From an uncultured Chloroflexia bacterium (GTDB lineage: Bacteria; Chloroflexota; Anaerolineae; Anaerolineales; Anaerolineaceae): a DNA stretch of 32,000 nt. Of this stretch, positions 1-30,105 are shown one piece after another. Under the pieces are notes generated by a model. It did no database searches and was not told the DNA's origin. It saw nothing but the letters and a program-made list of their open reading frames with translations. The DNA lies in assembly GCA_963704755.1 (NCBI GenBank), contig OY969938.1, forward strand, positions 1,380,001-1,412,000, in the 5' to 3' direction. Position numbers and translations under genes: made by a program. Position 1 is the stretch's first letter. The number at the start of each line of letters is the position of its first letter.

Positions 1-543
1 CAAATTTTCCCGTATAGAAATTGAATTATTTTAGGGTGGAATAACACACTTAGCAATAACAACCCGATAATCAAGAGTATATACTGGGTGTTCTTTGTGA
101 AAAAAATCAGTATTCCGCTAATAAGAATTACCTGAACCCCAGTCCAAACAACCATCAATATTTCTATTCCACTTGCGAAACCTGAGGTTTTTACATCTAC
201 TCCGCTTCTCTTATATAATGCCATTCTCCCTACCACGTTCATATATGGCCCTGGAAGTCTTCTCCCTGCCAATGTACTCAAGTAAATAATGAGATGCGAG
301 TGGAATTCTCCAGGGATATTAAAAATCTTCGCAATAATTGCCCACAAAATGCCAGAATTGATAGTTACGATAATATATATAGGGATAGTTAGTAACAGAT
401 AAACCCAGTTGATTTCTTCTTTCGAAGATAATACATCCTTAAATCCATTCCATGCTTGAAAACAAATGTAAGCCATTATAAGAACGCTAATAGAAATTCC
501 TAGAATCTTTACGAATAGCGAATTCTTTATATTCTTAAGCATG
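1..543 (-). CDS. Partial CDS (N-terminal ~181 codons; the C-terminus lies beyond the window start). Polytopic membrane protein resembling the flippase-like / lysylphosphatidylglycerol-synthase-TM (UPF0104) family.
   Basis: It is absent from the ORF track because it runs off the edge. Hand translation of the reverse strand from the ATG (complement of 541-543) gives MLKNIKNSLFVKILGISISVLIMAYICFQAW...IIYLSTLAGRRLPGPYMNVVGRMALYKRSGVDVKTSGFASGIEILMVVWTGV... with no stop down to base 1. There are several hydrophobic helices and a GRxLPG..VGR..LYKRxGV motif. It begins a few nt after the stop of the upstream methyltransferase ORF, on the same strand and with the same AT-rich composition. Confidence 0.55.
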
Positions 544-549
544 AGATGC

Positions 550-876
550 TCACTTTTTTTGAAAAAACAAAGTCATGTATGAGCTTTTATTTAATTTTCC
601 CAATACATAATTTATCGGAAAAAGTACTATTCTGAAAAACATGGAATTTGTAAATCTTTCAAGAATTTTATAAAGAAAATTGTTGCTTTCCATATCAGAA
701 TAAATAAATTTAAGCGAAATAACTACTCCCCCAAAATTTCCGGTAAAGCTTTTAATGCCCTTATATTCAAAATCCTCTTTACGAATTAGTTTTCTGATAG
801 TAGAACGCGAGAAAAGAAAAAAGTGCCGGGGAACATCCCATCCTGCCCAATACTTGCCAAAAATTCTGGAGTCCAA
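550..876 (-). CDS. C-terminal fragment of a class I SAM-dependent methyltransferase. It belongs to the same gene as 920..1474, split by a frameshift.
   Basis: The ORF-track protein starts (TTG) DSRIFGKYWAGWDVPRHFF..., the conserved C-terminal block of this methyltransferase family. Reading the same frame upstream gives KPGGWLILNIPNPDSL, which continues directly from the end of ORF 920..1474. Confidence 0.7.
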   Translation of the reverse strand: MDSRIFGKYWAGWDVPRHFFLFSRSTIRKLIRKEDFEYKGIKSFTGNFGGVVISLKFIYSDMESNNFLYKILERFTNSMFFRIVLFPINYVLGKLNKSSYMTLFFQKK

Positions 877-919
877 AGAATCCGGATTAGGAATATTTAA
901 TATTAACCACCCGCCTGGT

Positions 920-1474
920 TTAAAGAATCCTTTTAGTTTCCGTTATAGAGGAGAGCGGATCTTTTAAATGCTCTAATACATCCCAATAAGTTACAACATC
1001 AAAAAAATTATCTTCAAAATTTGATTCCAATAAATCAACATTTCTTACACTTAATCCTAATGTCTCATTCGCGTACTTCGAAGCAATTTCGGAAGTTTCA
1101 ACTCCAAAAGCTTCCCATCCCTTTTCTTTAAATCTCCTGAGCAATAAACCAGTAGCACACCCAACATCAAGAATTCTTCCAGGAAAGCGCACCTTATCCA
1201 TGACCGCAAAATACTTTTTCGTTATAGCAAAGCTTTTATCAATCTTTTGAAATTTACTTTCGTCCGAGTTTATTTTTTGAAAAGCCAAATAGTTGTCTGG
1301 ATAATACAATTCCAGTTCTTTTCCATTTGGGCGCGTTTCAAGAAAATAAAGGCCACATTGTTGACACTGAACTAGCCGAAATTCTCCCCCTAGTTTATGC
1401 AACATATCTTGACCGCTAAATACTAAGGCGAAAGTAGCGCTTCCGCACAATATGCATTGGTTTACTTTCTCCAA
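920..1474 (-). CDS. N-terminal fragment of a class I SAM-dependent methyltransferase: Cys4 zinc-ribbon plus Rossmann motif I.
   Basis: The protein has CILCGS...CQQCG (zinc ribbon), then ILDVGCATG (SAM motif I) and DVVTYWDVLEHLKDP (motifs II/III). It ends ...ETKRIL* exactly where family members continue with KPGG. Confidence 0.8.
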   Translation of the reverse strand: MEKVNQCILCGSATFALVFSGQDMLHKLGGEFRLVQCQQCGLYFLETRPNGKELELYYPDNYLAFQKINSDESKFQKIDKSFAITKKYFAVMDKVRFPGRILDVGCATGLLLRRFKEKGWEAFGVETSEIASKYANETLGLSVRNVDLLESNFEDNFFDVVTYWDVLEHLKDPLSSITETKRIL

Positions 1475-1485
1475 AGAATTACCTT

Positions 1486-2655
1486 TTAATCCTTAATAAG
1501 ATGATCATAAAATACTTCTAACTCATTGGCTCTTTTTTCCCAATTATACTGGGTCTCTGCTATATACCTGGCATTTCCACCCATAATTTTGCGTAATCCC
1601 TCATTGCTTAAGAGAGCAAGGATATTCCTTGCATGCTCGCGAAAATCCGGTTCACATAATATGCCAATATTCTCGTGAGAAAAAACTAATGATATATCTC
1701 CCACATCTGAACTTATGATTGGCTTTCCAATAGCCAAATAATCTGTCAATTTTAAAGGAAGCCTTCCTTGGTTTGCTATAGAGTTTGTTAATGGCAACCA
1801 TAAAATATCACACGCATTAAGGAGATAATTTACTCGACCAATTGGAAGAGCGCCTGTCATTATTACAAATTCCGAATTTGCAATTAATTTTTTTATATCA
1901 AACGGGAAATATCCAATTATAAGAAACAGGATTTTAGGGTTTGTTTTATGCACCTCGTTAATTGTATCGATCATTAGGAGAGCATCTTTGTAAAAGATTG
2001 TTCCTAAATAACCCACAATATGATTAAATGAATTAAGATGCTCGTTTTTTCTGGCTTGATCTATCGGAACCGGATAAAAATTTTCTAAATCTGAGCCATT
2101 AACAATTCTTTTTATTCGCATCTGATCCACACCTAAAGCAATAGCTCTTTCGTATAAACAATTGCAAATTACTGTAGTCCCTTCAGGAATAAGACGAAAT
2201 TTATTTTCAAAGAATGTTTCAATAGGCCTTAATAATAATTTCACTAACGGATTAACTCGTTCTTCGATTGACCCACCTTTACCAAGCCAATCTGCCCAAT
2301 CCAGAAAAATGTGTTTTATCCGTTTTCTAGCCCAAAGTATCGGAATAATGACTGTAGGTCGGGTGTCAAATCCATGAATTAAGTCAAACTTTTTCCCACG
2401 CATCCATAGTATTCTGCGAACAACATTATATAAATCCCAGCCTGATCTCAACGAACCAAAAAGTAAATCGGGCATAAGGACTATCTGAACATTATCAATT
2501 CTTTTCTCTTCTAGAGATATTTTGTTTTTCTCTGAAGTAGCAATTAAATAAACCTCGTGCCCTTTTCGGGCTAAAGATTTTGAAAAATTAAACGCACGCC
2601 AATAAGACCCTTTATAGACCTTGTTATAACAGACCATCAAAATTTTCATAATCAC
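1486..2655 (-). CDS. Glycosyltransferase family 4 (GT-B fold, 389 aa).
   Basis: The N-terminus MKILMVCYN...KGHEVYLIA is typical of a GT4 N-domain. Size and a C-terminal E..G....E-type region fit the family. Its start overlaps the stop of the upstream GT2 by 4 nt (2652-2655). Confidence 0.75.
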   Translation of the reverse strand: MIMKILMVCYNKVYKGSYWRAFNFSKSLARKGHEVYLIATSEKNKISLEEKRIDNVQIVLMPDLLFGSLRSGWDLYNVVRRILWMRGKKFDLIHGFDTRPTVIIPILWARKRIKHIFLDWADWLGKGGSIEERVNPLVKLLLRPIETFFENKFRLIPEGTTVICNCLYERAIALGVDQMRIKRIVNGSDLENFYPVPIDQARKNEHLNSFNHIVGYLGTIFYKDALLMIDTINEVHKTNPKILFLIIGYFPFDIKKLIANSEFVIMTGALPIGRVNYLLNACDILWLPLTNSIANQGRLPLKLTDYLAIGKPIISSDVGDISLVFSHENIGILCEPDFREHARNILALLSNEGLRKIMGGNARYIAETQYNWEKRANELEVFYDHLIKD

Positions 2656-3398
2656 TCTTTAAAAAATATTCCATCCTTCAATCCACGCCAATAAGCTTTA
2701 AAGGATAATATCCGGTTTCTAAATAAAAGACGATAACTCGTTTTTAATGCACTGCAAAATCTCCAGAAAAAGATTATTGGAATTTGAAATTTCTTTGCAT
2801 ATCGCTTAAAAAAAACAACGCTGGACCGCGCCATCCAATAACGTTCGTTTTCAGAATCCGATCCATCGCTAGAAACACTTACTTTATGCCAAATTATTGC
2901 CTTAGGAACTAAATATTGGGGTATTTCAGCTTTATTAAGCCTCATACCAAAGTCACGGTCTTCATAATATAAAAAAAAATGCTCATCAAATAGGCCAATA
3001 CTACCAAAGACTTCTTTAGGAATTAGGAGGGCACAGGCGGTAAGAAAATCTCGTTTAATTATAGTTTCATTCATAAATACCTTTTTTGAGCTCTTTTTTA
3101 CTTCAAGTGTGATTTTATTTAAATCCCCGCCCATTGACCAGATTTTCTCTTTTTTATCGAAGTAACAAATTTCTGGTCCAGTTATGCAGCGGCAATTTTT
3201 TAAAGGCAGGAATAAATTAATTAGCATATCAGGATCACAAACAGTATCATTATTTATAATAAATATAAATTCTGCCCCACAATTTATACAATACTTTATT
3301 CCAATATTAAATCCTCCAGCGAAACCCAAATTTTTCTCAAGCGCAATAATTTCTATATCAGGATGTTTGGCAACTATTTTTTTAATTGAAGTATCCAT
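2652..3398 (-). CDS. Glycosyltransferase family 2, main fragment. The N-terminal ~45 residues lie upstream in another frame.
   Basis: Motifs seen: LEKNLGFAGGFNIG, FIINNDT (DxD region) and YYEDRDFGMR (ED motif). Reading this frame upstream of the annotated Met gives ISFSKIVVVDNGS, the first GT2 acidic motif. Confidence 0.8.
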   Translation of the reverse strand: MDTSIKKIVAKHPDIEIIALEKNLGFAGGFNIGIKYCINCGAEFIFIINNDTVCDPDMLINLFLPLKNCRCITGPEICYFDKKEKIWSMGGDLNKITLEVKKSSKKVFMNETIIKRDFLTACALLIPKEVFGSIGLFDEHFFLYYEDRDFGMRLNKAEIPQYLVPKAIIWHKVSVSSDGSDSENERYWMARSSVVFFKRYAKKFQIPIIFFWRFCSALKTSYRLLFRNRILSFKAYWRGLKDGIFFKE

Positions 3399-3438
3399 TG
3401 AACCATTGTCGACTACTACAATTTTGGAAAATGAAATT

Positions 3439-3543
3439 TCATTTTGACACTTTTAATGAAGAAATACAATCAATGGTATCATCTGGCTTTTTCCAATTTA
3501 CAGTTACTGCAAAAATATTGGGATTACTGGCTAAAACATTCAT
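3439..3543 (-). pseudogene. Detached N-terminal fragment (34 codons) of the GT2 gene at 2652..3398.
   Basis: Hand translation gives MNVLASNPNIFAVTVNWKKPDDTIDCISSLKVSK*, the canonical GT2 start (V.V.NW.....T..CL.SL). Dropping one base from the TTTT run at 3442-3445 fuses it in frame to NEISFSKIVVVDNGS of the downstream ORF. Confidence 0.6.
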
Positions 3544-3721
3544 AAATGTGGGACTATTCCTTTCTTTTATATTAAAATAATAGAAAGCTATAATTACAAA
3601 GAAGCTACGGATCTATATTTCACCAAAATATTTTCCAAAATATAAAATCAATGATGTTGCCTAATCGTATTCAACTTTGAGGTAGAAAAAGTTAAAGCCG
3701 TTTTTAAATTACTTTCCCCCC

Positions 3722-4651
3722 TTACCCCTTCCTCATCCGATACAAAATCTCCTCCAGCAGTTTCCTGTTAAACCCGATCAAATCGGCTACCAGGCCGATG
3801 AGCCAGGTCTGGAATCCCACGATCAGCACCACGGCGGAGATGATCAGCGATTGGATGTGCCCGTTGCCGGCTCCTACGGCGAAGTAGATCAGGAAACGCA
3901 GCACGCCAAGGACTCCCAAAAGCACCAGCCCGGCGCCGATCATGACGAACAAGCGCAGCGGCCGGTATAGGGTATAGGCGCGGATAATCGTAACGGTGGA
4001 ATGGGTCAGGTAGTCCCACATGCCGCGCATCAGGCGGGAAGGCCGTGAGGGCGGATTGGTGCTCACCGGCACGAATTTGACCTGGGTACGTTGGTCGCCG
4101 GCCTGGATCAGTGTCTCCAGGGTATAAGAATAATGGCTCAGCACCACCGTCCGCAAGGCCACTTCCCGGGTCAGGGCGCGGAAGCCGCTGGTTGCGTCCG
4201 GGATTTCGAAGCCGGCTGCCTGTGTGACTACCCGGCTGCCCAGGGTTTGCAGACGCCGTTTGAACGGCGAAAATTCCTTGAGAGTCGCCACACCCCGGTC
4301 GCCAATGACCAGCTCGGCCTCGCCGTGCAGGATCGGCCCGACCAATTTATAGATATCCTCGGCAGAATACTGATTATCCGCGTCGGTATTGACGATGATG
4401 TCCGCACCCAGGCGGGTGCAGGCGTCCAGGCCGGCGGCATAAGCGCTCGCCAAGCCGGAATGGTGCGGCAGGTTGACCACGTGGTCGACCCCACATTCCC
4501 AGGCAACATCCACCGTTTTATCCTGGCTGCCATCATTAATTACCAAAATTTCCACCCGGTCCAACCCGGGCAGGCGCCGTGGGATCTGTTTGACGGTTCC
4601 CGATAAGGTTTCGGCCTCGTTATAACAAGGAATCTGAACGATGAGCTTCAT
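3722..4651 (-). CDS. Glycosyltransferase family 2 with C-terminal transmembrane helices (polyprenyl-phosphate sugar transferase-like, 309 aa).
   Basis: Motifs seen: [25 protein letters not shown] and TDADNQY (DxD). There are two hydrophobic helices at the C-terminus. The gene is GC-rich, unlike the genes to its left. Confidence 0.85.
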
Positions 4652-9237: not shown

Positions 9238-9501
9238 AGGGAGCTTTTTAAGTAAACCCGTAATCCGATTGACTGGTCTCCAGGCCAAATCATAAATCCC
9301 CCCAACCCACTTAGCAAGGGGGCAAGGACCAGCGAGCTATTCCCCCCTTGGAGGTCGTGAAGCATTCAGAATACGCGCATGAATTCTTGAAAACCTGCTA
9401 TCGTATGGCGCCGAATATAGGCCGGGAGGTTCTTCACAGCCTCAACAAGGGGGGCAAAGGGGGGATTCTTTCTGCTTGCGAAGTAAAATATATTTTCCAT
9501 A

Positions 9502-9530
9502 TTGACAAATCCCGTCAGATTACCTACAAT
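9502..9530 (+). promoter_or_regulatory. Consensus sigma-70-type promoter of the lysine (AAA) operon leader.
   Basis: TTGACA at 9502-9507, an exact 17-nt spacer, then TACAAT at 9525-9530. The ATG of the first leader ORF (9537) is 7 nt downstream of the -10 box. Confidence 0.65.
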
Positions 9531-9536
9531 AGGCCC

Positions 9537-9620
9537 ATGTTTAGCAATCAAGTTGAATTAAACGTTTCCAAGAAGTTCGGTAAGAAGGCCTCCCAACCAC
9601 TCACGTGGTCTGGAAAATAG
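9537..9620 (+). CDS. Leader peptide 1 (27 aa, MFSNQVELNVSKKFGKKASQPLTWSGK), with two AAG-AAG lysine codon pairs.
   Basis: Hand translation. It lies in frame inside track ORF 9348..9620 but starts after the promoter. Lys codons are at 9570-9575, 9582-9587 and 9615-9617. It is followed by terminator 1. Confidence 0.6.
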   Translation: MFSNQVELNVSKKFGKKASQPLTWSGK

Positions 9621-9647
9621 CGCTTACCCGAACGTTGGAATTTGAGC

Positions 9648-9679
9648 CACCTCACCAGACCCGGTGAGGTGTTTTTTTT
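9648..9679 (+). terminator. Intrinsic terminator / attenuator 1.
   Basis: CACCTCACC (9648-9656), a 6-nt loop, GGTGAGGTG (9663-9671), then T8 (9672-9679). Confidence 0.8.
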
Positions 9680-9693
9680 CCCAAAAGGCAATA

Positions 9694-9798
9694 ATGAACA
9701 GAAACAGCAGTTCCGCAAACATTACCACCCATCTCGATAAGAAGGCCAAGAAGCACATGCCGGATGCAGATCTGGATAAGCGCACTTGCCTGGAATAA
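9694..9798 (+). CDS. Leader peptide 2 (34 aa, MNRNSSSANITTHLDKKAKKHMPDADLDKRTCLE), with two AAG-AAG lysine codon pairs.
   Basis: Hand translation. AAGG lies 5 nt upstream of the ATG. Lys codons are at 9739-9744, 9748-9753 and 9778-9780. It is followed by terminator 2. Confidence 0.55.
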   Translation: MNRNSSSANITTHLDKKAKKHMPDADLDKRTCLE

Positions 9799-9817
9799 GA
9801 GAAATCAGTTGGTACCA

Positions 9818-9856
9818 GCGGGCTTGCCAGATCAAACGGCAAGCCCGTTTTTTATT
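9818..9856 (+). terminator. Intrinsic terminator / attenuator 2, 33 nt before the homocitrate synthase start.
   Basis: GCGGGCTTGCC (9818-9828), a 9-nt loop, GGCAAGCCCG (9838-9847), then TTTTTTATTT. Confidence 0.8.
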
Positions 9857-9888
9857 TATATCGGCGGAAACGCCAGGAAAGAGGTCTC

Positions 9889-11103
9889 ATGAGTCTGGAA
9901 CATTTTTCGATCATCGAATCTACACTGCGCGAGGGTGAACAGTTCGTCAATGCATTTTTCACCACCGAGCAGAAAATTCAAATAGCCCACCTGCTGGACG
10001 ATTTTGGGGTGGAATACCTCGAGCTGACCACCCCGGCCGCCTCCACCCAAAGTGCGCGTGACTGCGAAACCATCGCCGGCCTGGGCCTGCGCGCCAAAAC
10101 CCTCACCCATACCCGCTGCAATATCAATGACGTGCGCCAGGCCGTCGAGACCGGTGTGGATGGGGTGGATATTGTGATCGGTACCTCATCCTATCTGCGT
10201 GAGTTCAGCCATGGCAAGAGCATCGACACCATCATCGAAATGGCCCAGGAAGTGTTGGAATATCTGAGCCATTTCAACGTAGAAATGCGCTTCAGCACCG
10301 AAGATTCCCTGCGCAGTGACCCGGCCGACCTCTTCCGGGTGTACGCAGCCGTCGACAAGCTGGGCGTCAACCGGGTCGGCATCGCCGACACGGTGGGAAT
10401 CGGTAACCCCCGCCAGATTTACGAACTGGTCAGTGAACTGCGCTCGCGCGTCCACGCCGATATCGAATTCCACGGCCACAATGACACCGGCTGCGCCATC
10501 GCGAATGCCTTCGCCGCCCTGGAAGCCGGCGCCACCCACATCGATACCAGCATTCTGGGCATCGGCGAACGCAACGGCATCACCCCCCTGGGCGGCCTGG
10601 TCGCCCGCCTGTACGCCATAGATCCCGGGCTGGTATCCAAATACAACCTGCCCATGATGCTGGAGCTCGACCAGACCATCGCCAAAATGGTGGGGGTGGA
10701 CATCCCTTTCAACAATTACATCACCGGTTTCTCGGCCTTCACCCATAAAGCCGGCATCCACGCCAAAGCCGTGCTCAACAACCCCTCAACCTACGAAGTG
10801 CTGCGGCCCGAAGATTTCGGCCTGACCCGCTACATCCACATCGCCCACCGCCTGACCGGCTGGAACGCCATCCGCTACCGCGCCGACCAGTTGAACATCC
10901 CCCTGACCGACGACGAAATCAAAAGTATCACCGAACGGATCAAACAGCTCTCCGACCAGTACAACATTACCCTCGATGAAGTTGACCGGCTGCTCTACGC
11001 GGCCAGCTCGAACGCTGACATTACCGCTGAAACTGTAGTCGAAACCGCTACCCCCTTACTCAATCCGGAAAGGACTTCCCAAAATGGGACAAACGCTCTC
11101 TGA
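9889..11103 (+). CDS. hcs: Homocitrate synthase (AAA lysine pathway).
   Basis: [26 protein letters not shown] and [15 protein letters not shown] are near-identical to the blocks I recall from Thermus thermophilus HCS. At 404 aa the size fits. The genomic context is homoaconitase, HICDH and LysX. Confidence 0.85.
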
Positions 11104-12337
11104 ACAAATTCTTTCGCATGCCTCCGGCCGCTCGATCCGCCCGGGCGACCTGGTTATCGTTGAACCGGAAGTGGTGATGAGCCACAATTCGTTGACTCCC
11201 AGTATTATTAAAATCGCCCAACAGGAATTAGGGATGACCGAGATCCGCCACCCGGAGCGGCTGGTCTTCGTCCTCGACCACGTTTCGCCGCCTTCCACGG
11301 TCGGCACGGCCAATGCGCAGAAAGTGGTCCGTACCTTCGCCCAGGAGAACAATGTGCGCCTGTTCGACGTAGGCCGCGGCATCTGTCACCAGGTGCTGGT
11401 AGAAGAACGTATCGCTGCGCCCGGCAAAATTGTGGTGGGCTCCGATTCGCACTCCACCGGCTATGGTTCGGTATGCGCCTTCGGCACTGGCATGGGCTCC
11501 ACCGACGTGGCCCTGGTGTGGGCCACCGGGCGCACCTGGCTGCGCGTGCCCGAAACGATCCGCATCCGGGTGCATGGCCGCTTTAGCCAATGGGTGGGGG
11601 CCAAAGACCTGGCCCTGAAAATTTGCCAGACCCTGACCATTGCCGGCGGAAACTACGCCGCGCTAGAATATCACGGCCTGGATTGGCTGGACCTGCCCGG
11701 CCGCCAGACCCTGGCCAGCATGGCCGTCGAGGTTGGCGCGAAAGTCGGCCTGGTACCGCCCAGCGGGGAAGCTGCCCGCGATTGGGATGTACCGGATTGG
11801 CTGTTCGTCGATCCTGAAGCGAGCTATGCCCGAACGGTGGACATCGATTTGGACGAATTACACCCACAGGTTTCCATCCCGCACGCGGTCGACCACGTCG
11901 CGGACCTGCCCGAAGTGGCCGGCACCCATGTGGATATGATCTTCCTGGGTACCTGTACCAACGGGCGCTACGAAGATATGCGCGCCGCCGCCAATATCCT
12001 GCGCGGCCGGCACGTCGCCAGCAGTGTGCGCATGCTGGTTACCCCCGCCTCCAGCCGCGAGATGGCCCGCGCGGCCGCCGATGGCACCCTGACCGAGCTG
12101 ATCGAAGCCGGCGCCGTGCTGACCTCGCCCGGCTGCGGCGCCTGTATGGGCCGCCACCAGGGTACCCTGGGTGAAAACGACGTCTGCCTGTCCACCGGCA
12201 ACCGCAATTTCCGTGGCCGTATGGGCGCGCCCACCTCGCAAATCTACCTGGCCTCCGCTGAAGTGGCCGCCGCCACCGCCCTGACCGGGGTCATCACCCA
12301 CCCGGCTGAGGTTGCCGTGGAAAACGCCCGCGCATAA
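11084..12337 (+). CDS. hacA: Homoaconitase / 3-isopropylmalate-dehydratase-type large subunit (short archaeal-type, 417 aa).
   Basis: Aconitase family motifs are present: [16 protein letters not shown] and SPGCGACMG (Fe-S Cys ligands). It overlaps hcs by 20 nt. The homoaconitase role is inferred from context, not from sequence alone. Confidence 0.8.
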
Positions 12338-12366: not shown

Positions 12367-12582
12367 AGGGCAAAAAGCGCCGGCCAAACAGCCCATGGGT
12401 TTGTTAAACCAGCGCTGTGCCCCCCTTCCCCGCTTCCCCCCAAATCAAAAACCGATTTGGAGGGAAGGGCCAGATTCCTCCCCTAAAATCCGCACTTTGG
12501 ATTTTGGGGGAGGCCAGGAGGGGGCAAAAAGCGCCGGCCAACCAACCCATTGGCTTGTTAAACTAGCGCTGTGCCCCCTTTC
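12367..12582. repeat. Two direct repeats of about 62 bp, each a hairpin, flanking two smaller hairpins within the hacA-hacB spacer.
   Basis: gagggcaaaaagcgccggccaaacagcccatgggtttgttaaaccagcgctgtgcccc (12367-12425) versus gagggggcaaaaagcgccggccaaccaacccattggcttgttaaactagcgctgtgcccc (12518-12578). The inner hairpins are cttccccccaaatc/gatttggagggaag and cctcccctaaaatcc/ggattttgggggagg. Confidence 0.75.
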
Positions 12583-12637
12583 CCGAACCTGTTACCTAAA
12601 TCTTCATTATCATTTAGCTGATAAAAAGGAGTTATCG

Positions 12638-13132
12638 ATGCCTAGAGTATGGAAATTTGGATCCGATGTGGATACCGACCAGATCGTGCCCGGGCGCTAC
12701 GCGCCTTACATGCGCCCGGACGCGGATGTCGGCGATGCGGCCTTCATCGAAGCCCGCCCGGAGTTTGCCCAAAACGCCCGCCCAGGCGACGTGATCGTCG
12801 CCCTGGACAATTTCGGCTGCGGCTCCTCGCGGGAATACGCGGTCGAGGCGCTCAAACGGCGCCAGGTCGGCGCGATCATTGCCCGCGGATACGCGCGCAT
12901 CTTCTTCCGCAACGCGCTTAACCTGGGTATTCCCCTCATCACCGCCCCCGACGTGGTCGAGGCCCTCCAGGACGGCGACGAGATCAGCCTGGACCTGGTC
13001 AAAAGCGAACTCTCCCGCGGGAACGAAATGTTTATTCTGCCCGAATTTCCCGAATTCGCCCGCGAGATCCTGGCAGCCGGCGGGATCGTGCCCTACGTAC
13101 GCGAACATCATCGCTTCCCGGGGGAACAATGA
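12638..13132 (+). CDS. hacB: Homoaconitase / isopropylmalate-dehydratase-type small subunit (164 aa).
   Basis: The sequence reads MPRVWKFGSDVDTDQIVPGRY...GCGSSREYAV...IIARGYARIFFRNALNLG. The AAGGAG RBS lies 7 nt upstream of the ATG at 12638. The track ORF 12395.. is an upstream read-through across the repeat region. Confidence 0.85.
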   Translation: MPRVWKFGSDVDTDQIVPGRYAPYMRPDADVGDAAFIEARPEFAQNARPGDVIVALDNFGCGSSREYAVEALKRRQVGAIIARGYARIFFRNALNLGIPLITAPDVVEALQDGDEISLDLVKSELSRGNEMFILPEFPEFAREILAAGGIVPYVREHHRFPGEQ

Positions 13133-14136
13133 GTTCTGCCCAATTGTGCGTCATCGAGGGAGATGGGATCGGCCACGAGGTCATCCCGGCGGCCGTGCAG
13201 GTGCTGCGTATGGCCGTCCCCCAGTTGGAAACAATCCAGGCCGAAGCCGGCTGGGATTGTTTCCAACGCAGAGGGGTCTCAGTCCCACCCGAAACCCTGG
13301 AGGCTTTACGCGCCTGTGGCGCCGGGTTGTTCGGGGCGGTCTCTTCCCCTTCCCATAAAGTCGAGGGTTACCGCAGCGCCATCCTGACCATGCGCCAGGA
13401 GCTGGACCTGTACGCCAACCTGCGCCCGGTCCGCAGTCTGCCGGGGGTCTCTCCCCGGACAGGCATCGACTTCGTCATCGTGCGCGAGAATACCGAGGGA
13501 TTGTACGCCGGGCGTGAGCGCCTGGAAGGCGACACGGCCATCGGTAAGCGCATCATCACCCGCCAGGCTTCCCGGCGGATCGGCCTGCGCGCGCTGGAGT
13601 TGGCCCGTTCGCGACCGCGCAAACGCCTGACCATCGTCCACAAAGCCAACATCCTGCCGGTGACGGATGGGCTTTTCCGCGATACCGTCCGTGAGGCGGC
13701 CGCCGAGACCGGCGCAGAGTCGGCCGGTGTGGTCATCGAGGAGGTGCTGGTGGATAACGCCGCTTATCAAATCGCCGCCAACCCGGAGCGCTTCGACGTC
13801 ATTGTAACTACCAACCTGTTCGGCGACATCCTTTCGGACGAAAGCGCGGTCTGGTGTGGCGGGATGGGCCTGGCCCCTTCGCTGAACTGGGGCGACGGCC
13901 TGGCCCTGGCCGAGCCGGTCCACGGCTCTGCACCCGATATCGCCGGTAAAGGCATCGCTAACCCGATCGCGGCCATCCTCAGCGCGGCCCTGCTGGCGCG
14001 TTATGCCTGGAACATGAACGCCGCCGCCGAACGGATCGAAAGCGCGGTTTCCATCTGCCTGGCCGCCGGTCAAGCCGGCGCCGGGGCCACCACGGCCGAA
14101 ATCACCCAGGCCATCCTCCGGCACCTGGATGAATAA
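13129..14136 (+). CDS. Homoisocitrate dehydrogenase (isocitrate/isopropylmalate dehydrogenase family, 335 aa).
   Basis: Motifs seen: LYANLRP, VRENTEGLY, NLFGDILSDE and GSAPDIAGKGIANP. It overlaps the hacB stop (ATGA). The HICDH assignment comes from cluster context. Confidence 0.8.
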   Translation: MSSAQLCVIEGDGIGHEVIPAAVQVLRMAVPQLETIQAEAGWDCFQRRGVSVPPETLEALRACGAGLFGAVSSPSHKVEGYRSAILTMRQELDLYANLRPVRSLPGVSPRTGIDFVIVRENTEGLYAGRERLEGDTAIGKRIITRQASRRIGLRALELARSRPRKRLTIVHKANILPVTDGLFRDTVREAAAETGAESAGVVIEEVLVDNAAYQIAANPERFDVIVTTNLFGDILSDESAVWCGGMGLAPSLNWGDGLALAEPVHGSAPDIAGKGIANPIAAILSAALLARYAWNMNAAAERIESAVSICLAAGQAGAGATTAEITQAILRHLDE

Positions 14137-14140
14137 GAAA

Positions 14141-14800
14141 TAAACCACGAAGAATTTAACCACGGAGGCACGGACCCTGGCACCGCCCGCCAGGGCAGGT
14201 GGGGCACGGAGAAGAAAAGAGTTTATCCCTGAGCACACAGAGGCCACAGAGAAGAAAGAGGAGAAATGAGTAAAATTGATGGCCGAAAGGACAAAGACCT
14301 GCAGCGGATCGGCCCGGTCTCCAGACCGAGGCCGCTCTTCATTGCAAATTAGTGGTTCGCTGCGATTCGGGTCGTGCGTTTGGTTGTCGTTGCGAGCGGT
14401 TTGTGCGACCCTGCACCTGCGGTTCTGGGCAGGTGAGCAATATCAACAATACCCGAATAGCTCAATGGCCAGCGTTGAGATTGCCACTGGCAGCAAAAAA
14501 CGCTGCCTTCACAACGACAACCAAACGCAAAACCTGAATCGCAGGCAATTCCTTATTTGCGTAGAAGAGCGGCCTCGGTCTGGAGACCGGGCCGATCCAC
14601 CTTAGGCCATCGCTCTTTTAAACAGGACCTTCTCATCCTCTCTTTCTTTTCTCTGTGAACTCTGTGTACTCTGTGGTTAAATTCCTTTTTTCTCCGTGCT
14701 CTGAGATTAATCCCTTTCTTCTCCGTGTTCCACCTGCCCTGGCGGGCGGTGCCAGGGTCCGTGCCTCCGTGGTTTATCTTTCTTCGTGGTTATTTTTTCT
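14141..14800. repeat. Nested imperfect palindrome of about 660 bp. It has outer CTCCGTG/CTCTGTG-type arms, a 35-bp core inverted repeat and an inner inverted repeat around a unique centre of about 110 bp.
   Basis: 14158-14202 is the exact reverse complement of 14730-14774 (45 bp). The core ggatcggcccggtctccagaccgaggccgctcttc (14306-14340) is the reverse complement of 14564-14598. The inner inverted repeat is cgattcgggtcgtgcgtttggttgtcgttg versus caacgacaaccaaacgcaaaacctgaatcg. Confidence 0.85.
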
Positions 14801-14867
14801 CTGTGGTTATTCTTTCTTTACCTAACCCATATTTATTCCCGGCAAGACGCCGGACAAGGAATTCTCA

Positions 14868-15716
14868 ATGAAAATCGGTGTTTTATTTTCTCGACTACGT
14901 GTGGAAGAGAAATGGATCTTTGAAGCCCTGGAAAAACGCGGGGTGGACTATGACCGTATCGACGACCGCCGGGTCACTTTCAACGTGACCAACCCGGGCG
15001 AATGGCTGCAATACGACGTGGTGCTGGTCCGCAGCCTGTCGTATCACAATGGACTATACGCAGCCCAGGTGCTCAACTCCTGGGACATCCCCACGGTCAA
15101 CTCGGCCCGCGTCGCGGCCACCTGCGGGGACAAACTGGTGACCACGACGGCCCTGGCCCAGGCCGGCATCCCCCAGCCGCAGGTCTGGACGGCCTTTTCG
15201 ACGGACGCTGCCCTGGAAATCATGGACCAGATCGGCTACCCGGTGGTGCTGAAGCCGCTGGTGGGGTCGTGGGGGCGTTTGTTATCCAAAGTCAACGACC
15301 GGGACGCGGCCGAGACCATTCTGGAGCACAAAGAAGTGATGGGCGGCCCGCAGCATAGTGTGATTTACATCCAGGAATACATCCACAAACCCAGCCGGGA
15401 CATCCGCAGTTTTGTGATCGGCGACCACACCGTGTGCGCCATCTACCGTGAGGCCGAACACTGGATCACCAATACCGCCCGCGGCGGCAAAGCCGAAGTC
15501 TGCCCGGTGACGCCCGAACTGGACCAGTTGAGCGTCGCCACGGCCCAGGCGGTCGGCGGCGGGGTCATCGCCGTGGATATTCTCGAAGATCCCGAACGCG
15601 GTTACCTGGTCAACGAGGCCAACCACACCATGGAATTCCATTCCACCGTGCCCCTCACCGGTGTGGATATCCCCGGCATGCTGGTGGATTACGCCCTTTC
15701 GATTGCGAGGAAGTGA
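14868..15716 (+). CDS. lysX: LysX: ATP-grasp alpha-aminoadipate--LysW ligase (RimK/LysX family).
   Basis: [53 protein letters not shown] and [11 protein letters not shown] closely match the T. thermophilus LysX blocks as I recall them. Size is 282 aa. Confidence 0.85.
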
Positions 15717-15784
15717 GGGGAAGGGGAGCAGGCAACGAGGCAATAAGGGATAAGGCAACAAGGTAATCAGTGAAGCCCTAAAGT

Positions 15785-15865
15785 GGATCGGCCCGGTCTC
15801 CAGACCGAGGCCGCTCTTATTGGCCGGCCAATAAGAGCGGCCTCGGTCTGGAGACCGGGCCGATC
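15785..15865. repeat. 81-bp palindrome made of two abutting copies of the same 35-bp core found in the 14141-14800 element.
   Basis: ggatcggcccggtctccagaccgaggccgctctta ttggccggccaa taagagcggcctcggtctggagaccgggccgatc. The left flank (15722-15765) is rich in GGCAACGAGG-type words; the right flank carries their complement. Confidence 0.85.
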
Positions 15866-15984
15866 GCTTTGGCCAATTGAGCTTCCTGCCAGATTACTGT
15901 GGTGACTGATCGCCTCCTTGCCTTCTTACCTCATCCCCTCATCGCCTCATCGCCTCCTTGCCCTCTTACCTTATTGCCTTTTTG

Positions 15985-16176
15985 CCTCATCGCCTCGTTG
16001 CCTCATCGCCTCGTTGCCTCATCCCCTCGTTGCCTCATCGCCTCGTTGCCTCATCCCCTCGTTGCCTCATCCCCTCGTTGCCTCATCCCCTCGTTGCCTC
16101 ATCCCCTCGTTGCCTCATCCCCTCGTTGCCTCATCCCCTCGTTGCCTCATCCCTTATTGCCTCATCCCCTCGTTGC
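15985..16176. repeat. Tandem array of 12 copies of a 16-bp unit, CCTCATC(G/C)CCTCGTTG. Degenerate copies extend from about 15910 to about 16195.
   Basis: Direct reading. The units are in register every 16 nt from 15985. Only position 8 (G/C) and one unit (cccttattg) vary. Confidence 0.9.
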
Positions 16177-16332
16177 CTTCTCCCTCCCCTCTTTCCGCCG
16201 TATAATAGTTCCCAACAAGTTAACTAAATCGGGGTTATCCGCAAGCGCCGGTTAGAACTATAAGAATTTTCTCTTCAAAAAAATATCTCTCCTGCCTGCA
16301 CGCCCCTTAAAATTATCTGCATCGAGGAAAAT

Positions 16333-17085
16333 ATGGAATTCAAACCCATCTGGCGCGAAGAATTACACGTGCGCGCCTACGAAACGGATTTTAATAACCG
16401 TTGGAAACCGACCAGTTATTTCCAGGCGATGGAAGAAGCCGCCACCAACCATGCCCGTCACCTGGGCTATGATTATCCTGACATGCTGGCGCAAGGCATG
16501 GTCTGGGTGCTGACCCGCCTGAAAATCTATTTCTACGACTATCCCAGCATTCCCGACCCGGTTATTATCGAGACCTGGCCGCGGGGCATCCAGCAAAAGA
16601 TCTTTTTCACCCGCGATTTCCGCCTGTCTTCTCCCGAAGGCCGGCTTTATGCGGCCGCCACCTCTGCCTGGCTGCTGATCGACCCGGTCCAGCGCCGCAT
16701 GCTGCGCCCCGACCGCCTGTCCAACCATTTACCTCAGAACGAAGGCCATTTCGCGGTGAACGAACTGCTGGAAAAGATTCCCCAGCCGGATAATTTGCAG
16801 GAATGCGCCCGCGTCAAAGCCGAATACAGCGACATCGACATGATCGGGCACGTCAACAACGCCCGTTACATCGACTGGGTCAGCAACTGCTTCCCGATGG
16901 AACAATACCAAAATTCCCGCCTGGACTGGCTGCAAATCAATTACAACAACGAGGTCAAGGCAGGTGAAACGGTCGTCCTTTCGGCTGCCCAGAACAGCGC
17001 CGAACCCAACCGCTGGTTCATCCTGGGCAGCAACCCGTCCAGCGGAATGCCTAATTTCGAAGTCGATCTGGGGTGGCGGGAGTAG
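16333..17085 (+). CDS. Acyl-ACP thioesterase (FatA/FatB-like double hotdog, 250 aa).
   Basis: Motifs seen: YETDFNNRWKP, MVWVLTRLKI and DIDMIGHVNNARYIDW (catalytic D..GHVNN). GAGGA lies upstream. Confidence 0.8.
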   Translation: MEFKPIWREELHVRAYETDFNNRWKPTSYFQAMEEAATNHARHLGYDYPDMLAQGMVWVLTRLKIYFYDYPSIPDPVIIETWPRGIQQKIFFTRDFRLSSPEGRLYAAATSAWLLIDPVQRRMLRPDRLSNHLPQNEGHFAVNELLEKIPQPDNLQECARVKAEYSDIDMIGHVNNARYIDWVSNCFPMEQYQNSRLDWLQINYNNEVKAGETVVLSAAQNSAEPNRWFILGSNPSSGMPNFEVDLGWRE

Positions 17086-17150
17086 CTGTTAGCGGTTAGC
17101 GGTTGGCTTTTAGCGATTGGCCGTTAGCGGTTGGCCGTTAGCGGTCAGCT
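17086..17150. repeat. Heptamer-period tandem repeat arm (GTTAGCG / GTTGGCC variants).
   Basis: agctgttagcggttagcggttggcttttagcgattggccgttagcggttggccgttagcggtcagctg. It is complementary in type to the arm at 17330-17436. Confidence 0.8.
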
Positions 17151-17294
17151 GCAATGGAGGGTGTCGTTGAGCGCGGATGAAGGTAATGCCATCGATTTAC
17201 CTAAAGAAAGATATTTCCAGGCGTGCCTTCAACAAACTAGCAACGCTTGTCTATAATCACCTTGGGCACTAAGAAATGCTCCAGCTAAACCAAA

Positions 17295-17329: not shown

Positions 17330-17436
17330 AAGCTAATGGCTAACAGCTAACCGCTAACGGCTAACCGCTAATCGCCAACAGCTAATCGCCAACAGCTAAT
17401 CGCCAACAGCTAATCGCCAACAGCTAACAGCTACCC
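17330..17436. repeat. Heptamer/14-mer tandem repeat arm (GCTAACAGCTAAC..., then 4 copies of CTAATCGCCAACAG).
   Basis: Direct reading. The first 26 nt (ctaaaagctaatggctaacagctaac) recur at 20966-20993. Confidence 0.8.
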
Positions 17437-17437
17437 G

Positions 17438-18817
17438 CTAATTGCTCGTTCCCGGATTCTCCATCCGGCCCATGAACAAAACCGACCCGCTGGTGTTATC
17501 CAGGATCATGAAGATGAACGGGTGATCCAGCGTGACGGTCACCTCATTCGCCATCATCGAGGTCAGACCGGCCACCACGCCGGTCGCAGCAGCCGCTTCG
17601 GTGCCGTCTTCGTCCACATTGACATAGGCCTTGTGAACGACATTGTTGATGTACAGGTCCTGGCGGCCATCCATCTTCGAAAAATCGGCCGCGGATGGGT
17701 CGAAAGCATCCGTCATTCCCAGCGCTTTGAGCGTGTCGCTCAAGCCGAAGGATGATTCGATCTTGAAGCTGGGCATGCTCAAGGTGACTTCCGCCGGTTG
17801 CAGGCCATCCCGGATCTTCTGGATCTGGTCGGCCGTGAGCGACTGCTCGAACGAACCCAGACTGCCTGCATCCGGCATAACTGCGATCATGGCGTAATTC
17901 CCGCCGGCATAGGGCATTTCGACCGCCTGGTAGCCATCGCTCTTCAGGTAAGTGAGCGAATCGCGGACGTGCATGGTCGGCGTTTGGATGGTCGAGCCGC
18001 CGGCTAGGGTGAAATCGGCCGGGGCTGTCTGGCTCTTATCGAACGGGTACTGCCAGGCTGCCTTGAAATAGATCGCGTTGGCCAGCACCAGGCGGGTCAT
18101 CGGGTCGATTGCCCCTTGCGGAATAAGGTCCTGGATTTTGTTGGCGGTCTGGTCGGCCACCCACTGGTTGATCTGCTGGCGGACTGTCTCAGAATCCTGG
18201 AAGTCCACCGGGTAGATCCCGCTGCCATAATATTGCGCCAGGGTATCCAGAAAGGCCGGCAGGAAATCGAAATCATGCTGAGCCCAGATCGAATTGGCGA
18301 TATCCAGCTTGAAGCCACCCTTTGTCGAGCTATTCTGGCCGCCCTCCAGGGACTGGTCCAGGGCATTGAAGGCCGGGTTCAGCCGGCCGGCAGGCCGGCT
18401 GAAGTGCAGCGTGTCCGCCATCTGGGTGGCGGTATCGTTATTGGCGCCGCTGGCGGTCATCGCCAGGGCCAGTGAAATACTGTAAGGTGAAAAGAACAGG
18501 TTGCCATCCTGGCCGCGCAACTGCTGGTAAAGCGCCGTCGCAAAGGCGGTGTTATCGCTGACCAGTTGCTGAATGTCGTCCTGCGAGACGGTTGCATCAG
18601 TTATGCGGGGCTGGTTCGAGACCAGTTCGACCCCGGGTTGGGCAGGTGTTTTCACGGTATCCTCCCCGGTCTGGGTGGGAGCTGGCGTTATGGGGACGGC
18701 CGGGCCGACGGGAGTCACCGTTTGCGCCGGTGAAGCGGTTGCAGCCGGGCTGCAGGCGGTCAGCCCCAGAAGGAACACCAGGCCAAAAAGAAATATATTA
18801 CGGATATTGGCTTTCAA
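17438..18817 (-). CDS. Serpin-family protease inhibitor, lipoprotein form (459 aa).
   Basis: Signal peptide plus lipobox FLLGLTAC, then a Pro/Thr linker. The serpin body includes NLFFSPYSISLALAM, NAIYFKAAW and the C-terminal signature DHPFIFMILDNTSGSVLFMGRMENP. Confidence 0.85.
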   Translation of the reverse strand: MKANIRNIFLFGLVFLLGLTACSPAATASPAQTVTPVGPAVPITPAPTQTGEDTVKTPAQPGVELVSNQPRITDATVSQDDIQQLVSDNTAFATALYQQLRGQDGNLFFSPYSISLALAMTASGANNDTATQMADTLHFSRPAGRLNPAFNALDQSLEGGQNSSTKGGFKLDIANSIWAQHDFDFLPAFLDTLAQYYGSGIYPVDFQDSETVRQQINQWVADQTANKIQDLIPQGAIDPMTRLVLANAIYFKAAWQYPFDKSQTAPADFTLAGGSTIQTPTMHVRDSLTYLKSDGYQAVEMPYAGGNYAMIAVMPDAGSLGSFEQSLTADQIQKIRDGLQPAEVTLSMPSFKIESSFGLSDTLKALGMTDAFDPSAADFSKMDGRQDLYINNVVHKAYVNVDEDGTEAAAATGVVAGLTSMMANEVTVTLDHPFIFMILDNTSGSVLFMGRMENPGTSN

Positions 18818-18952
18818 ATCGCACTCCTTTCACTGAGCAGTCCTCTCTGATTATAGCAAGCCGGTCAATTTCTACCCCATAGACGCCAAAAATCCCCGGC
18901 AGGTTCCTCTATTGATTTACCTTTGGTTACAACTCAGGCTAGTTCTGAAATT

Positions 18953-19009
18953 AGGGGTGTTTTATTATTTTTCGCATGCTTCGCATGCGAAAAATAATAA
19001 AACACCCCT
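18953..19009. repeat. Perfect 27-bp-stem hairpin, family 2 (AGGGGTGTTTTATT...CGCATGC type).
   Basis: aggggtgttttattatttttcgcatgc (18953-18979), loop ttc, then the exact reverse complement at 18983-19009. Confidence 0.85.
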
Positions 19010-20618: not shown

Positions 20619-21003
20619 GGAAGGGACCAGGCAACGAGGCGACAAGGCAACGAGGTGCAGGTGTAGGGTGGGTGCAGGGCTCGAATATTACCCGAGCGGA
20701 TTATCCATCTGCATGACATACCAAACCTTGCCCGTAACCCACCGTTTTACATTCTACAGGTAAAGGGACCAGGCAACTAGGCGACAAGGCAAAGAGGTGT
20801 AGAGTGGGTGCAGGGCTCAAAAATTACCCGAGCGGATTACCGATCGGCATAACATACCAAGCTTGCCCGTAACCCACCGTCTGGTTGTAAAATGGTGGGT
20901 TACGGGCAAGCTTGATACGTCAGAAAACTTAATATTTGCCAATTTTCTCAATGAGCCCTGCACCCACCCTTGCTAAAAGCTAATGGCTAACAGCTAACAG
21001 CCA
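20619..21003. repeat. Composite intergenic repeat: two direct repeats of about 140 bp, a 21-bp-stem hairpin, a distal 17-bp inverted repeat, and word-repeat arms shared with the 15.7-kb and 17.3-kb elements.
   Basis: gggaccaggcaacgaggcgacaaggcaacgagg...cttgcccgtaacccaccg (20619-20761) is repeated from 20764. The hairpin is aagcttgcccgtaacccaccg/cggtgggttacgggcaagctt type. gggtgggtgcagggctc pairs with gagccctgcacccaccc. Confidence 0.75.
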
Positions 21004-29940: not shown

Positions 29941-29999
29941 AGGGGTGTTTTTATTGTTTTTCGCGTGCGAAGCACGCGAAAAACAATAAAAACACCCCT
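29941..29999. repeat. Perfect 28-bp-stem hairpin, family 2.
   Basis: aggggtgtttttattgtttttcgcgtgc, loop gaa, gcacgcgaaaaacaataaaaacacccct. The flanks are homologous, in inverse orientation, to those of the 18953 copy. Confidence 0.85.
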
Positions 30000-30105
30000 G
30001 ATTTCCGAACTAGCCTGAGTAGTAACAAATTATTCGGCTCGTGCAAACGGGCCAAGCGGGAAACTGATCCTGATACCCATTAATGTTCGCATTGGGGAGG
30101 AATAA

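Follow-up and report, generated by a model that had tools for sequence, protein, structure and literature searches.

To our knowledge, leader-peptide attenuation based on lysine codons is represented by a single case, that of the alpha-aminoadipate (AAA) lysine cluster of Thermus thermophilus, whose attenuator has reportedly been studied experimentally (by Tsubouchi et al., in J Biol Chem in 2005). We recovered the homocitrate synthase (hcs) locus of T. thermophilus, whose product (HCS) is 100% identical to PDB 2ztj, and found the leader ATG CTG GCC CGC GCG AAA AAA CTC GGC CGC CGG GGG GTA GGG TAG, encoding MLARAKKLGRRGVG, followed by a single terminator, CCGGCCCG-GGTT-CGGGCCGG. The same plan, one module with one pair of adjacent Lys codons (a KK pair, AAA AAA) in a peptide of 14-16 aa, is seen at all the Thermus and Meiothermus loci (L081-L100) with enough upstream DNA. 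Here we examine the region preceding hcs in an uncultured Chloroflexia bacterium of the Anaerolineaceae, within a stretch of 32,000 nucleotides (nt) of contig OY969938.1 (assembly GCA_963704755.1, forward-strand positions 1,380,001 to 1,412,000), hereafter the window, whose first letter is position 1. An earlier note on this DNA, made from the letters alone, had proposed two serial Lys-codon leader peptides, each with its own intrinsic terminator, in front of the AAA lysine operon. Sequence comparison and folding models support that proposal: two independent ribosome-mediated Lys-codon leader-peptide attenuators probably stand in series before the operon, a reading to which we give a probability of roughly 0.8, and their small open reading frames (ORFs), KK pairs, stop positions and terminators are kept across dozens of species.

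The classical attenuators of E. coli (trp, his, leu, thr, pheA and ilv) combine an ORF holding cognate codons, alternative 1:2, 2:3 and 3:4 helices and an intrinsic terminator, and the position of the ribosome decides between them; the Chloroflexota leader is built alike. However, these attenuators are single modules with leader ORFs led by a Shine-Dalgarno (SD) site, and occur in Proteobacteria and Actinobacteria, whereas the window presents a lysine signal, an apparently leaderless first leader and two modules in series in Chloroflexota. Attenuation by leader peptides is textbook knowledge, but nearly all documented cases come from Proteobacteria and Actinobacteria. A 2010 census of attenuators described leader peptides as unknown at that time outside Proteobacteria and Actinobacteria, and mentions neither lysine nor Chloroflexi (PMC2965389). 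Two short ORFs in one leader, each with its own alternative structures, are found in Salmonella mgtCBR, where the tandem attenuators mgtM and mgtP sense ATP and proline-charged tRNA (Lee & Groisman 2012, PMC3641672) and act independently. The mgtCBR structures are unlike intrinsic terminators, Rho has been suggested to be involved, and the authors speak of ‘a singular example’ (PMC3641672); in the window, by contrast, the signal is that of Lys codons in both ORFs, and a canonical intrinsic terminator follows each. Two same-signal transcription-termination switches in series are also known as tandem riboswitches and as the double T-boxes of amino-acid genes in Firmicutes, for which a tighter or more cooperative response has been proposed, the double T-boxes being potentially recent duplications (PMC9413887). 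These sense by the RNA itself, through a ligand or uncharged tRNA, whereas the window would sense through a translating ribosome, and its two modules, unlike double T-boxes, are old and divergent. In a literature search of incomplete coverage we found no description of a Lys attenuator in Chloroflexota, nor of a same-signal tandem of leader-peptide attenuators, and the earlier note's remark that it recognised no in-series version as described holds as far as checked, the Thermus leader being single.

The leader begins with a near-consensus sigma-70-type promoter on the plus strand, which is also the strand of all leader features below (9502-9530; TTGACA at 9502-9507, a 17-nt spacer and TACAAT at 9525-9530, an 11/12 match). 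From the sequence, the predicted transcription start lies at or adjoins the AUG of the first leader, ORF1. Among the 17 relatives with a good promoter (a match of at least 9/12), 14 have a near-consensus one (10-12/12) whose -10 box ends 6-11 nt 5' of the first leader ATG. This gap is too short for any SD site, so that translation of ORF1 probably takes place on an mRNA that is leaderless or nearly so. Longer versions of ORF1, starting at TTG 9348 or ATG 9405, were rejected, since the conserved promoter lies inside them and points to ATG 9537.

ORF1 (9537-9620, 27 codons) encodes MFSNQVELNVSKKFGKKASQPLTWSGK, stops at UAG 9618-9620 and has homologous leaders in relatives. Its regulatory Lys codons, the predicted stall sites (9570-9587), are AAG AAG at 9570-9575 and at 9582-9587, and a further Lys codon, AAA, lies at 9615. 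ORF2 (9694-9798, 34 codons) encodes MNRNSSSANITTHLDKKAKKHMPDADLDKRTCLE, a leader of the KKxKK(x)PDxNLV type also present in relatives, with its regulatory Lys codons (9739-9753) as AAG AAG at 9739-9744 and at 9748-9753, and a further AAG at 9778. A weak SD, AAGG, can be read from the sequence at 9685-9688, 5 nt 5' of the ORF2 AUG; in relatives, the sequence 5' of second leaders is ordinary and likewise contains weak stretches rich in purines. Each ORF holds five Lys, including two AAG-AAG pairs, and is followed by a canonical intrinsic terminator, the whole forming modules A and B. Terminator A (9648-9679, -20.8 kcal/mol) has the arms CACCTCACC (9648-9656) and GGTGAGGTG (9663-9671), the loop AGACCC and a U8 run (9672-9679), and terminator B (9817-9853, -22.5 kcal/mol) the arms (A)GCGGGCTTGCC (9817-9828) and GGCAAGCCCG(TT) (9838-9849), the loop AGAUCAAAC and a T6 run (9848-9853). 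Promoter, ORFs, Lys pairs and terminators are thus all present where the earlier note had located them. The arrangement exceeds chance expectation, since ORF1 and ORF2 are the only small ORFs with KK..KK on either strand of the 32-kb window, each with a terminator after it, the leader folds more stably than shuffled sequence (z = -4.5), and other species show the same arrangement. Such leader ORFs will probably escape correct annotation by gene callers.

Searched with the HCS protein, species-representative genomes gave 80 loci at 65-82% identity, making 81 sequences (489 kb) with the window. The relatives are mostly metagenome-assembled genomes of Anaerolineae, Caldilineae, Ardenticatenia and Promineifilaceae, with some Planctomycetota, and in many of them a Lys-rich mini-ORF with a terminator recurs 5' of hcs. 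MAFFT aligns 31 modules in register, with the common blocks AAGAAG-N6-AAGAAG, (C)CGGA, UCUGG, GCUUGC, CCAGA and the terminator, which argues that all modules belong to one family with two subtypes, A and B. In type A the stop codon lies at UCUGG, the peptides ending in ..VVW or ..SG before the stop, and the terminator resembles ..CUCACC-AGA; type B has the peptide KKxKK(x)PDxNLV.., and its modules keep the terminator motif GCGGGCUUACC-AGA. Because loop lengths vary, MAFFT misaligns the terminator 3' arms, and an nhmmer profile and anchored gapless alignments were used in place of a covariance model. The profile hidden Markov model (HMM), built from the 31 modules and searched in the 81 hcs loci, gives 56 plus-strand matches in 45 of them, all 5' of the lysine operon, about 19 being modules outside the seed; the small ORFs, Lys pairs and stems proposed for the window are therefore conserved upstream of hcs. 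Some matches lie ~1 kb upstream, with a lysX-like gene coming first (checked in L029, with the same spacing in L015 and L028). Only four matches fall on the minus strand, all of them palindromic terminators. The closest relative, L001, has no leader, because its hcs follows another gene. A comparison of the leader DNA with a plasmid collection gave no match.

The reading frame of these mini-ORFs is under evident constraint. In the Lys frame (AAR AAR read as Lys-Lys), 40 of 50 modules have an in-frame ATG at most 45 codons away and a stop whose last base lies between -12 and +32 nt relative to the end of UCUGG, against 1/50 in the +1 frame and 2/50 in the +2 frame, and the Lys-frame stop ends a median of 3.5 nt after UCUGG. 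The Lys codon pairs are the most conserved block, while the residues between and after them vary freely. These observations bear on the possibility that lysine is sensed otherwise than by a ribosome, either by a lysine-binding riboswitch-like fold or by an RNA-binding protein on UCUGG/CCAGA, the mini-ORFs being incidental. Such sensing would suit the conservation of UCUGG, CCAGA, CUUGC and CCGGAY at the nucleotide level, as well as a ‘PD’ peptide motif that reflects an RNA constraint (see below). However, it would not account for a Lys frame kept with its stop beside UCUGG, for Lys codon pairs that outdo all other blocks in conservation, or for a promoter placed directly at the first AUG. Moreover, only short, variable stretches of RNA separate the blocks, and they hold no conserved core resembling a ligand pocket, and Rfam has no match at gathering score anywhere in the window, including the lysine riboswitch (L-box, RF00168) and the T-box; at E<=1, positions 9450-9950 give only a noise match to a nematode snoRNA. 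A lysine riboswitch, a T-box or any other known RNA family was accordingly rejected, and we regard sensing without a ribosome as highly improbable.

Of the alternative helices expected of a ribosome-mediated attenuator, the antiterminator covaries across the family. Its 5' strand, UCUGG with flanking bases, lies where the leader ORF ends, and its 3' strand, CCAGA likewise with flanking bases, is made of the last bases of the terminator 5' arm and the first ones of the loop. In the anchored gapless alignment (A1), 71.4% of cells are paired, against 30-38% with slid partners, and covariation is 0.241 versus 0.166, reached in 0/500 shuffles. The plain MAFFT alignment (A2) gives 74.3% against at most 40%, with covariation of 0.222 versus 0.149 and 34 compensatory cells versus 19.1, values that again none of 500 shuffles reach. 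In 18 non-seed modules, with strands placed by HMM columns (A3), the figures are 70.9% against at most 43%, and 0.180 versus 0.134 (4/500 shuffles). RNAalifold, run on the plain MAFFT alignment, proposes UCUGGU:ACCAGA unprompted. The covarying positions include bases of the terminator loop, for whose constraint termination alone gives no reason. A further helix, the anti-antiterminator CCGGAY:RUCUGG, is kept in 16 of 17 type-B-like modules by three Watson-Crick types, the closing pair of CCGGAN:NUCUGG being U-A in seven, C-G in seven, G-C in one, U.G in one and a mismatch in one; this pairing explains the conserved peptide ‘PD’ as an RNA constraint. In a second clamp, which recurs but has only moderate support (see below), the codon before the second KK pair together with AAG (GCAAG; GGUAAG in module A of the window) would pair with CUUGC (CUUACC) just after the stop.

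In the window, the module A antiterminator (9600-9668) consists of CUCAC (9600-9604) with GUGAG (9664-9668) and GGUCUGG (9607-9613) with CCAGACC (9655-9661). The complementarity of the latter two segments, already pointed out in the earlier note, is confirmed, and the exclusive pairing that it had suggested for this module, together with the CUCAC copy and its partner in the 3' arm, corresponds to the family-wide covarying antiterminator. The opposing clamp (9566-9640) joins the Lys-codon strand 9566-9584 to the post-stop strand 9623-9640 and encloses a mini-hairpin (9596-9600:9605-9609); it belongs to the minimum free energy (MFE) structure of the free RNA, with a free energy of -18.8 and z of -2.8. 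In module B, the antiterminator (9769-9833) is a helix of 15 bp between GAUCUGGAUAAGCGCACU (9769-9786) and AGCGGGCUUGCCAGAUC (9817-9833), and it is opposed by a hairpin (9760-9775) in which CCGGAU, formed by the Pro-Asp codons (9760-9765), pairs with AUCUGG (9770-9775), and by an extra clamp between the Lys-codon strand 9743-9750 and CUUGCC (9785-9791). A mutually exclusive pairing thus exists in module B as had been suggested, but with other partners: the helix is that of AUCUGGAUAAGC... (9769-9786) with the terminator 5' arm and loop (9817-9833). The segment GCGCACUUGCC, which the earlier note had taken as a near copy of the 5' arm, does not provide the conserved alternative by pairing with the 3' arm; it is the CUUGC block of the family, which in free RNA pairs back onto the Lys codons.

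Folding under ribosome occupancy switches both modules between terminator and antiterminator, as had been anticipated for mutually exclusive pairings that a terminating and a Lys-stalled ribosome would cover differently. In free RNA, module A forms its clamp, its mini-hairpin and the terminator, and module B its Lys-codon clamp (9743-9750:9785-9791), an extended CCGGAU:AUCUGG hairpin (9753-9765:9770-9783) and the terminator. When the second KK pair occupies the ribosomal A site, the full transcript has as its MFE structure the antiterminator, without the terminator, in module A (covered to 9598) and the 15-bp antiterminator in module B (covered to 9764). With the ribosome at the stop, covering 9603-9631 in module A and 9781-9809 in module B, the terminator forms in both.

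These folds suggest the following mechanism, in which the 350-nt leader would comprise two complete attenuators in series, both sensing the supply of Lys-tRNA(Lys). In module A, ORF1 would be read from a leaderless mRNA directly behind RNA polymerase. When lysine is sufficient, the ribosome would reach UAG 9618-9620 and mask GGUCUGG 9607-9613, so that terminator A forms and transcription stops. When lysine is scarce, it would stall on the AAG AAG pairs, most effectively at 9582-9587, and open the clamp over the UCUGG segment; CUCAC..GGUCUGG (9600-9613) could then pair with CCAGACC..GUGAG (9655-9668), block the terminator and let the polymerase continue. ORF2, with its own weak SD and AUG 9694, would repeat the lysine test in module B, where a ribosome stalled at 9748-9753 would cover CCGGAU 9760-9765 and free GAUCUGGAUAAGCGCACU (9769-9786) to pair with the terminator B 5' arm and loop (9817-9833), allowing the polymerase to reach hcs. 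Read-through into the operon would be the product of two independent decisions, giving a lower basal leak and a sharper response. In this scheme we infer where transcription begins, that it actually terminates, that it depends on lysine and that the two modules act multiplicatively.

A ribosome could also stall on these leaders for reasons other than lysine supply, such as translation stress, arrest by a nascent KKxxKK(P)D peptide, or the isoacceptor or modification state of tRNA(Lys). Runs of basic residues slow ribosomes, and the leaders use AAG far more than neighbouring genes do (AAG 136 : AAA 40 in leader Lys codons, AAG 129 : AAA 215 in the neighbouring hcs genes), which could mean that one decoding tRNA is sensed; AAG is also the rarer Lys codon in six window genes (8, versus 41 AAA). 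On the other hand, the regulated genes are lysine-biosynthetic at every locus, in keeping with the classic logic of cognate-codon leaders, the Thermus Lys leader among them, and a specific arrest peptide would sit poorly with the free variation of residues between and after the KK pairs. We therefore hold a signal other than lysine to be very unlikely.

Several points weigh against the reading of two ribosome-mediated Lys attenuators. The AAG preference itself may stem from pairing with CUU and not from codon rarity. Family-wide support for the Lys-codon:CUUGC (1:2) helix is only moderate, with 60.9% of cells paired against 33-51% with slid partners, a covariation reached by 33/500 shuffles and a mean duplex z of -0.97. 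The shuffle controls overstate significance with lineages as related as these, the slid-partner controls being safer, and pattern anchors played a part in the choice of the seed set, a weakness that the seed-independent set of 18 modules mitigates. With the ribosome stalled at the first KK pair, the antiterminator appears in the partial transcript only and the full-transcript MFE is the terminator, so that the second pair would be the thermodynamically effective site and the first would lean on kinetics. Finally, antiterminated module B could keep a weak 6-bp hairpin (9834-9839:9845-9850) before the U-run.

As to the tandem itself, two modules are found in 12 loci, one in 33 and none in 36, so that about a quarter of the module-bearing loci (12/45) are tandem: the window, L002, L003, L016, L020, L028, L029, L031, L033, L046, L050 and L052. 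This count is a lower bound, as L007, L030 and L064 have another KK ORF that is followed by a terminator but is more divergent. Within the 12 tandem loci, every one of the 24 modules has a strong terminator (-15.6 to -31.3 kcal/mol) with a U-run, and a Lys ORF is present in both modules in 11 of the 12, some starting far upstream or with GTG or TTG; only the second module of L031 is ambiguous. Modules of one locus are 0.51 identical, no more than modules of different genomes (0.51-0.55), and nearest neighbours tend to hold the same position. A recent tandem duplication was rejected on these grounds. The ‘duplicated’ version of the earlier note is accordingly correct in having two modules in series and wrong if taken as a recent copy: the within-locus identity indicates that the tandem is old, and A and B are two old subtypes that are maintained side by side, their order being kept in many genomes.

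The module found at single-module loci is of type A in some and of type B in others (of type B in Leptolinea sp. HRD-7, L010), a pattern that suggests repeated loss. That 33 of the 45 module-bearing loci have a single module also indicates that one is enough in many species, and only one of the two modules in the window might be a working lysine sensor, the other being a constitutive partial terminator, an insulator or what is left of a decaying duplicate. Yet both window modules keep a start, two KK pairs, the stop position, UCUGG/CCAGA, the terminator and the U-run, these elements are kept in both modules in 11 of 12 tandem loci, and the age and position specificity of the modules imply that selection acts on both; we consider a single working module very unlikely. 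If the two attenuators do act in series, the A-then-B pair could be an ancient, selected two-stage lysine switch, ultrasensitive and low in leak and not a redundancy, a view that we advance tentatively and at rather less than even odds. In its first stage, the leaderless first leader would link RNA polymerase to the pioneering 70S ribosome already at the transcription start; in its second, the SD-initiated leader would use a different clamp (CCGGAY:RUCUGG), and the two stalling decisions would be multiplied. By analogy, the terminated short RNAs (~140 and 315 nt) might act in trans, as rnTrpL of Sinorhizobium reportedly does.

The window has in common with Thermus that directly 5' of hcs, in an AAA lysine cluster, a short ORF holding adjacent Lys codons precedes an intrinsic terminator. 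However, the Thermus leader has none of the UCUGG, CCAGA, CUUGC and CCGGAY motifs, its predicted pairings are laid out differently, its peptide is KKxxxGG with a single KK pair, and its GC-rich terminator belongs to a single module where the window has two. The Chloroflexota module profile (nhmmer) has no match in L081-L160 at E<0.1, and homology to the Thermus leader, from which profile, motifs and predicted pairings all differ, was not detected. Judged by its sequence, the window system would work like the Thermus attenuator, yet it is no detectable member of the Thermus sequence family. In T. thermophilus, too, the leader ATG (L081, 898-942) lies only ~10 nt after the -10 box of a TTGACA-17-TACCCT promoter, a spacing from which near-leaderless leader peptides may be common to both Lys-leader families.

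We thus propose a new family of Lys leaders in Chloroflexota, often in same-signal tandem, with a first leader that is probably leaderless. It forms a conserved, unannotated RNA family (56 copies in 45 species-level genomes) whose signatures would suit an Rfam model and genome annotation, and it would explain the control of the AAA lysine pathway in the largely uncultured Anaerolineae. Natural ribosome-dependent attenuators that are in series and share a signal would permit a direct test of whether serial attenuators multiply, and leaderless initiation is suggested as a means of locking the first ribosome to the polymerase. If the two-stage view is true, the window would provide the first natural case of leader-peptide attenuators in same-signal tandem, within a new and widespread cis-regulatory RNA family of Chloroflexota.

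Two other possible kinds of hcs leader were observed among the loci. In L112-L117, which are metagenome loci, a conserved terminator (AATCGGTGAGAG-CGTG-CTCTCACCGATT with a T-run) lies ~80-270 nt 5' of hcs, after an ORF reading ‘VISKKRGGRRN..’, and this element may be another type of hcs leader or a riboswitch expression platform. In the Phycisphaerales L053 and L056, a conserved ORF ending in ..AKSLKKQ(A/G)K.. lies ~100-350 nt 5' of hcs. Only in L056 was a GC-rich terminator detected behind this ORF, which could represent a third Lys-leader type, independent of the others, in Planctomycetota.

The operon downstream of the leader is that of AAA lysine biosynthesis. The first regulated gene is hcs (9889-11103, plus strand; TIGR02146, 468.7 bits), whose product scores 530 bits against the fungal enzyme of S. 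pombe (3ivs) and 441 bits against the Thermus HCS (2ztj). Family matches identify hacA, the homoaconitase large subunit (11084-12337), hacB, its small subunit (to 13132), hicdh, the homoisocitrate dehydrogenase (13129-14136), and lysX (LysX, 14868-15716). The hacA-hacB spacer holds a 63-nt direct repeat (12368-12430 and 12522-12584, 90% identity), which accounts for the 81 residues by which the hacB ORF exceeds its family profile at the N terminus; the true start of hacB is probably further downstream. The hicdh-lysX spacer (14137-14867) contains nested long inverted repeats, with arms at 14158-14241 and 14691-14774 (84 nt, 88% complementary) and at 14286-14395 and 14509-14618 (110 nt, 80%), which form a ~620-nt palindromic element, possibly an insertion resembling a miniature inverted-repeat transposable element, or else a structured RNA of large size. 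A LysW-like ORF, which might be expected in this spacer, is not apparent. An element of ~46-50 nt with the palindromic core CGGTCTGGAGACCG occurs three times around lysX (14294-14339, 14565-14614 in inverted orientation, and 15773-15818). Directly 3' of lysX, positions 15909-16178 form a tandem array of ~12-17 copies of the 16-nt unit TTGCCTCATCCCCTCG (87-95% matches), and the 118-aa ORF that lies over it (15899-16255) is probably spurious.

Elsewhere in the window, positions 1-4000 have a GC content of 0.34-0.38, against 0.49-0.65 in the remainder, and three glycosyltransferase genes lie on the minus strand at this end (GT4/GT1 at 1486-2655, GT2 at 2652-3398 and GT2 at 3722-4651); the region is probably a horizontally acquired polysaccharide-synthesis island. 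A bacterial serpin gene (17438-18817, minus strand; PF00079, 403 bits) is flanked upstream by inverted repeats (17080-17151 and 17331-17434). Two arms of 50 nt that are 84% complementary (18923-18972 and 29980-30029) form an inverted repeat across 11 kb, and a separate 66-nt direct repeat (89%) occurs in two copies 136 nt apart, at 20659-20724 and 20795-20860.

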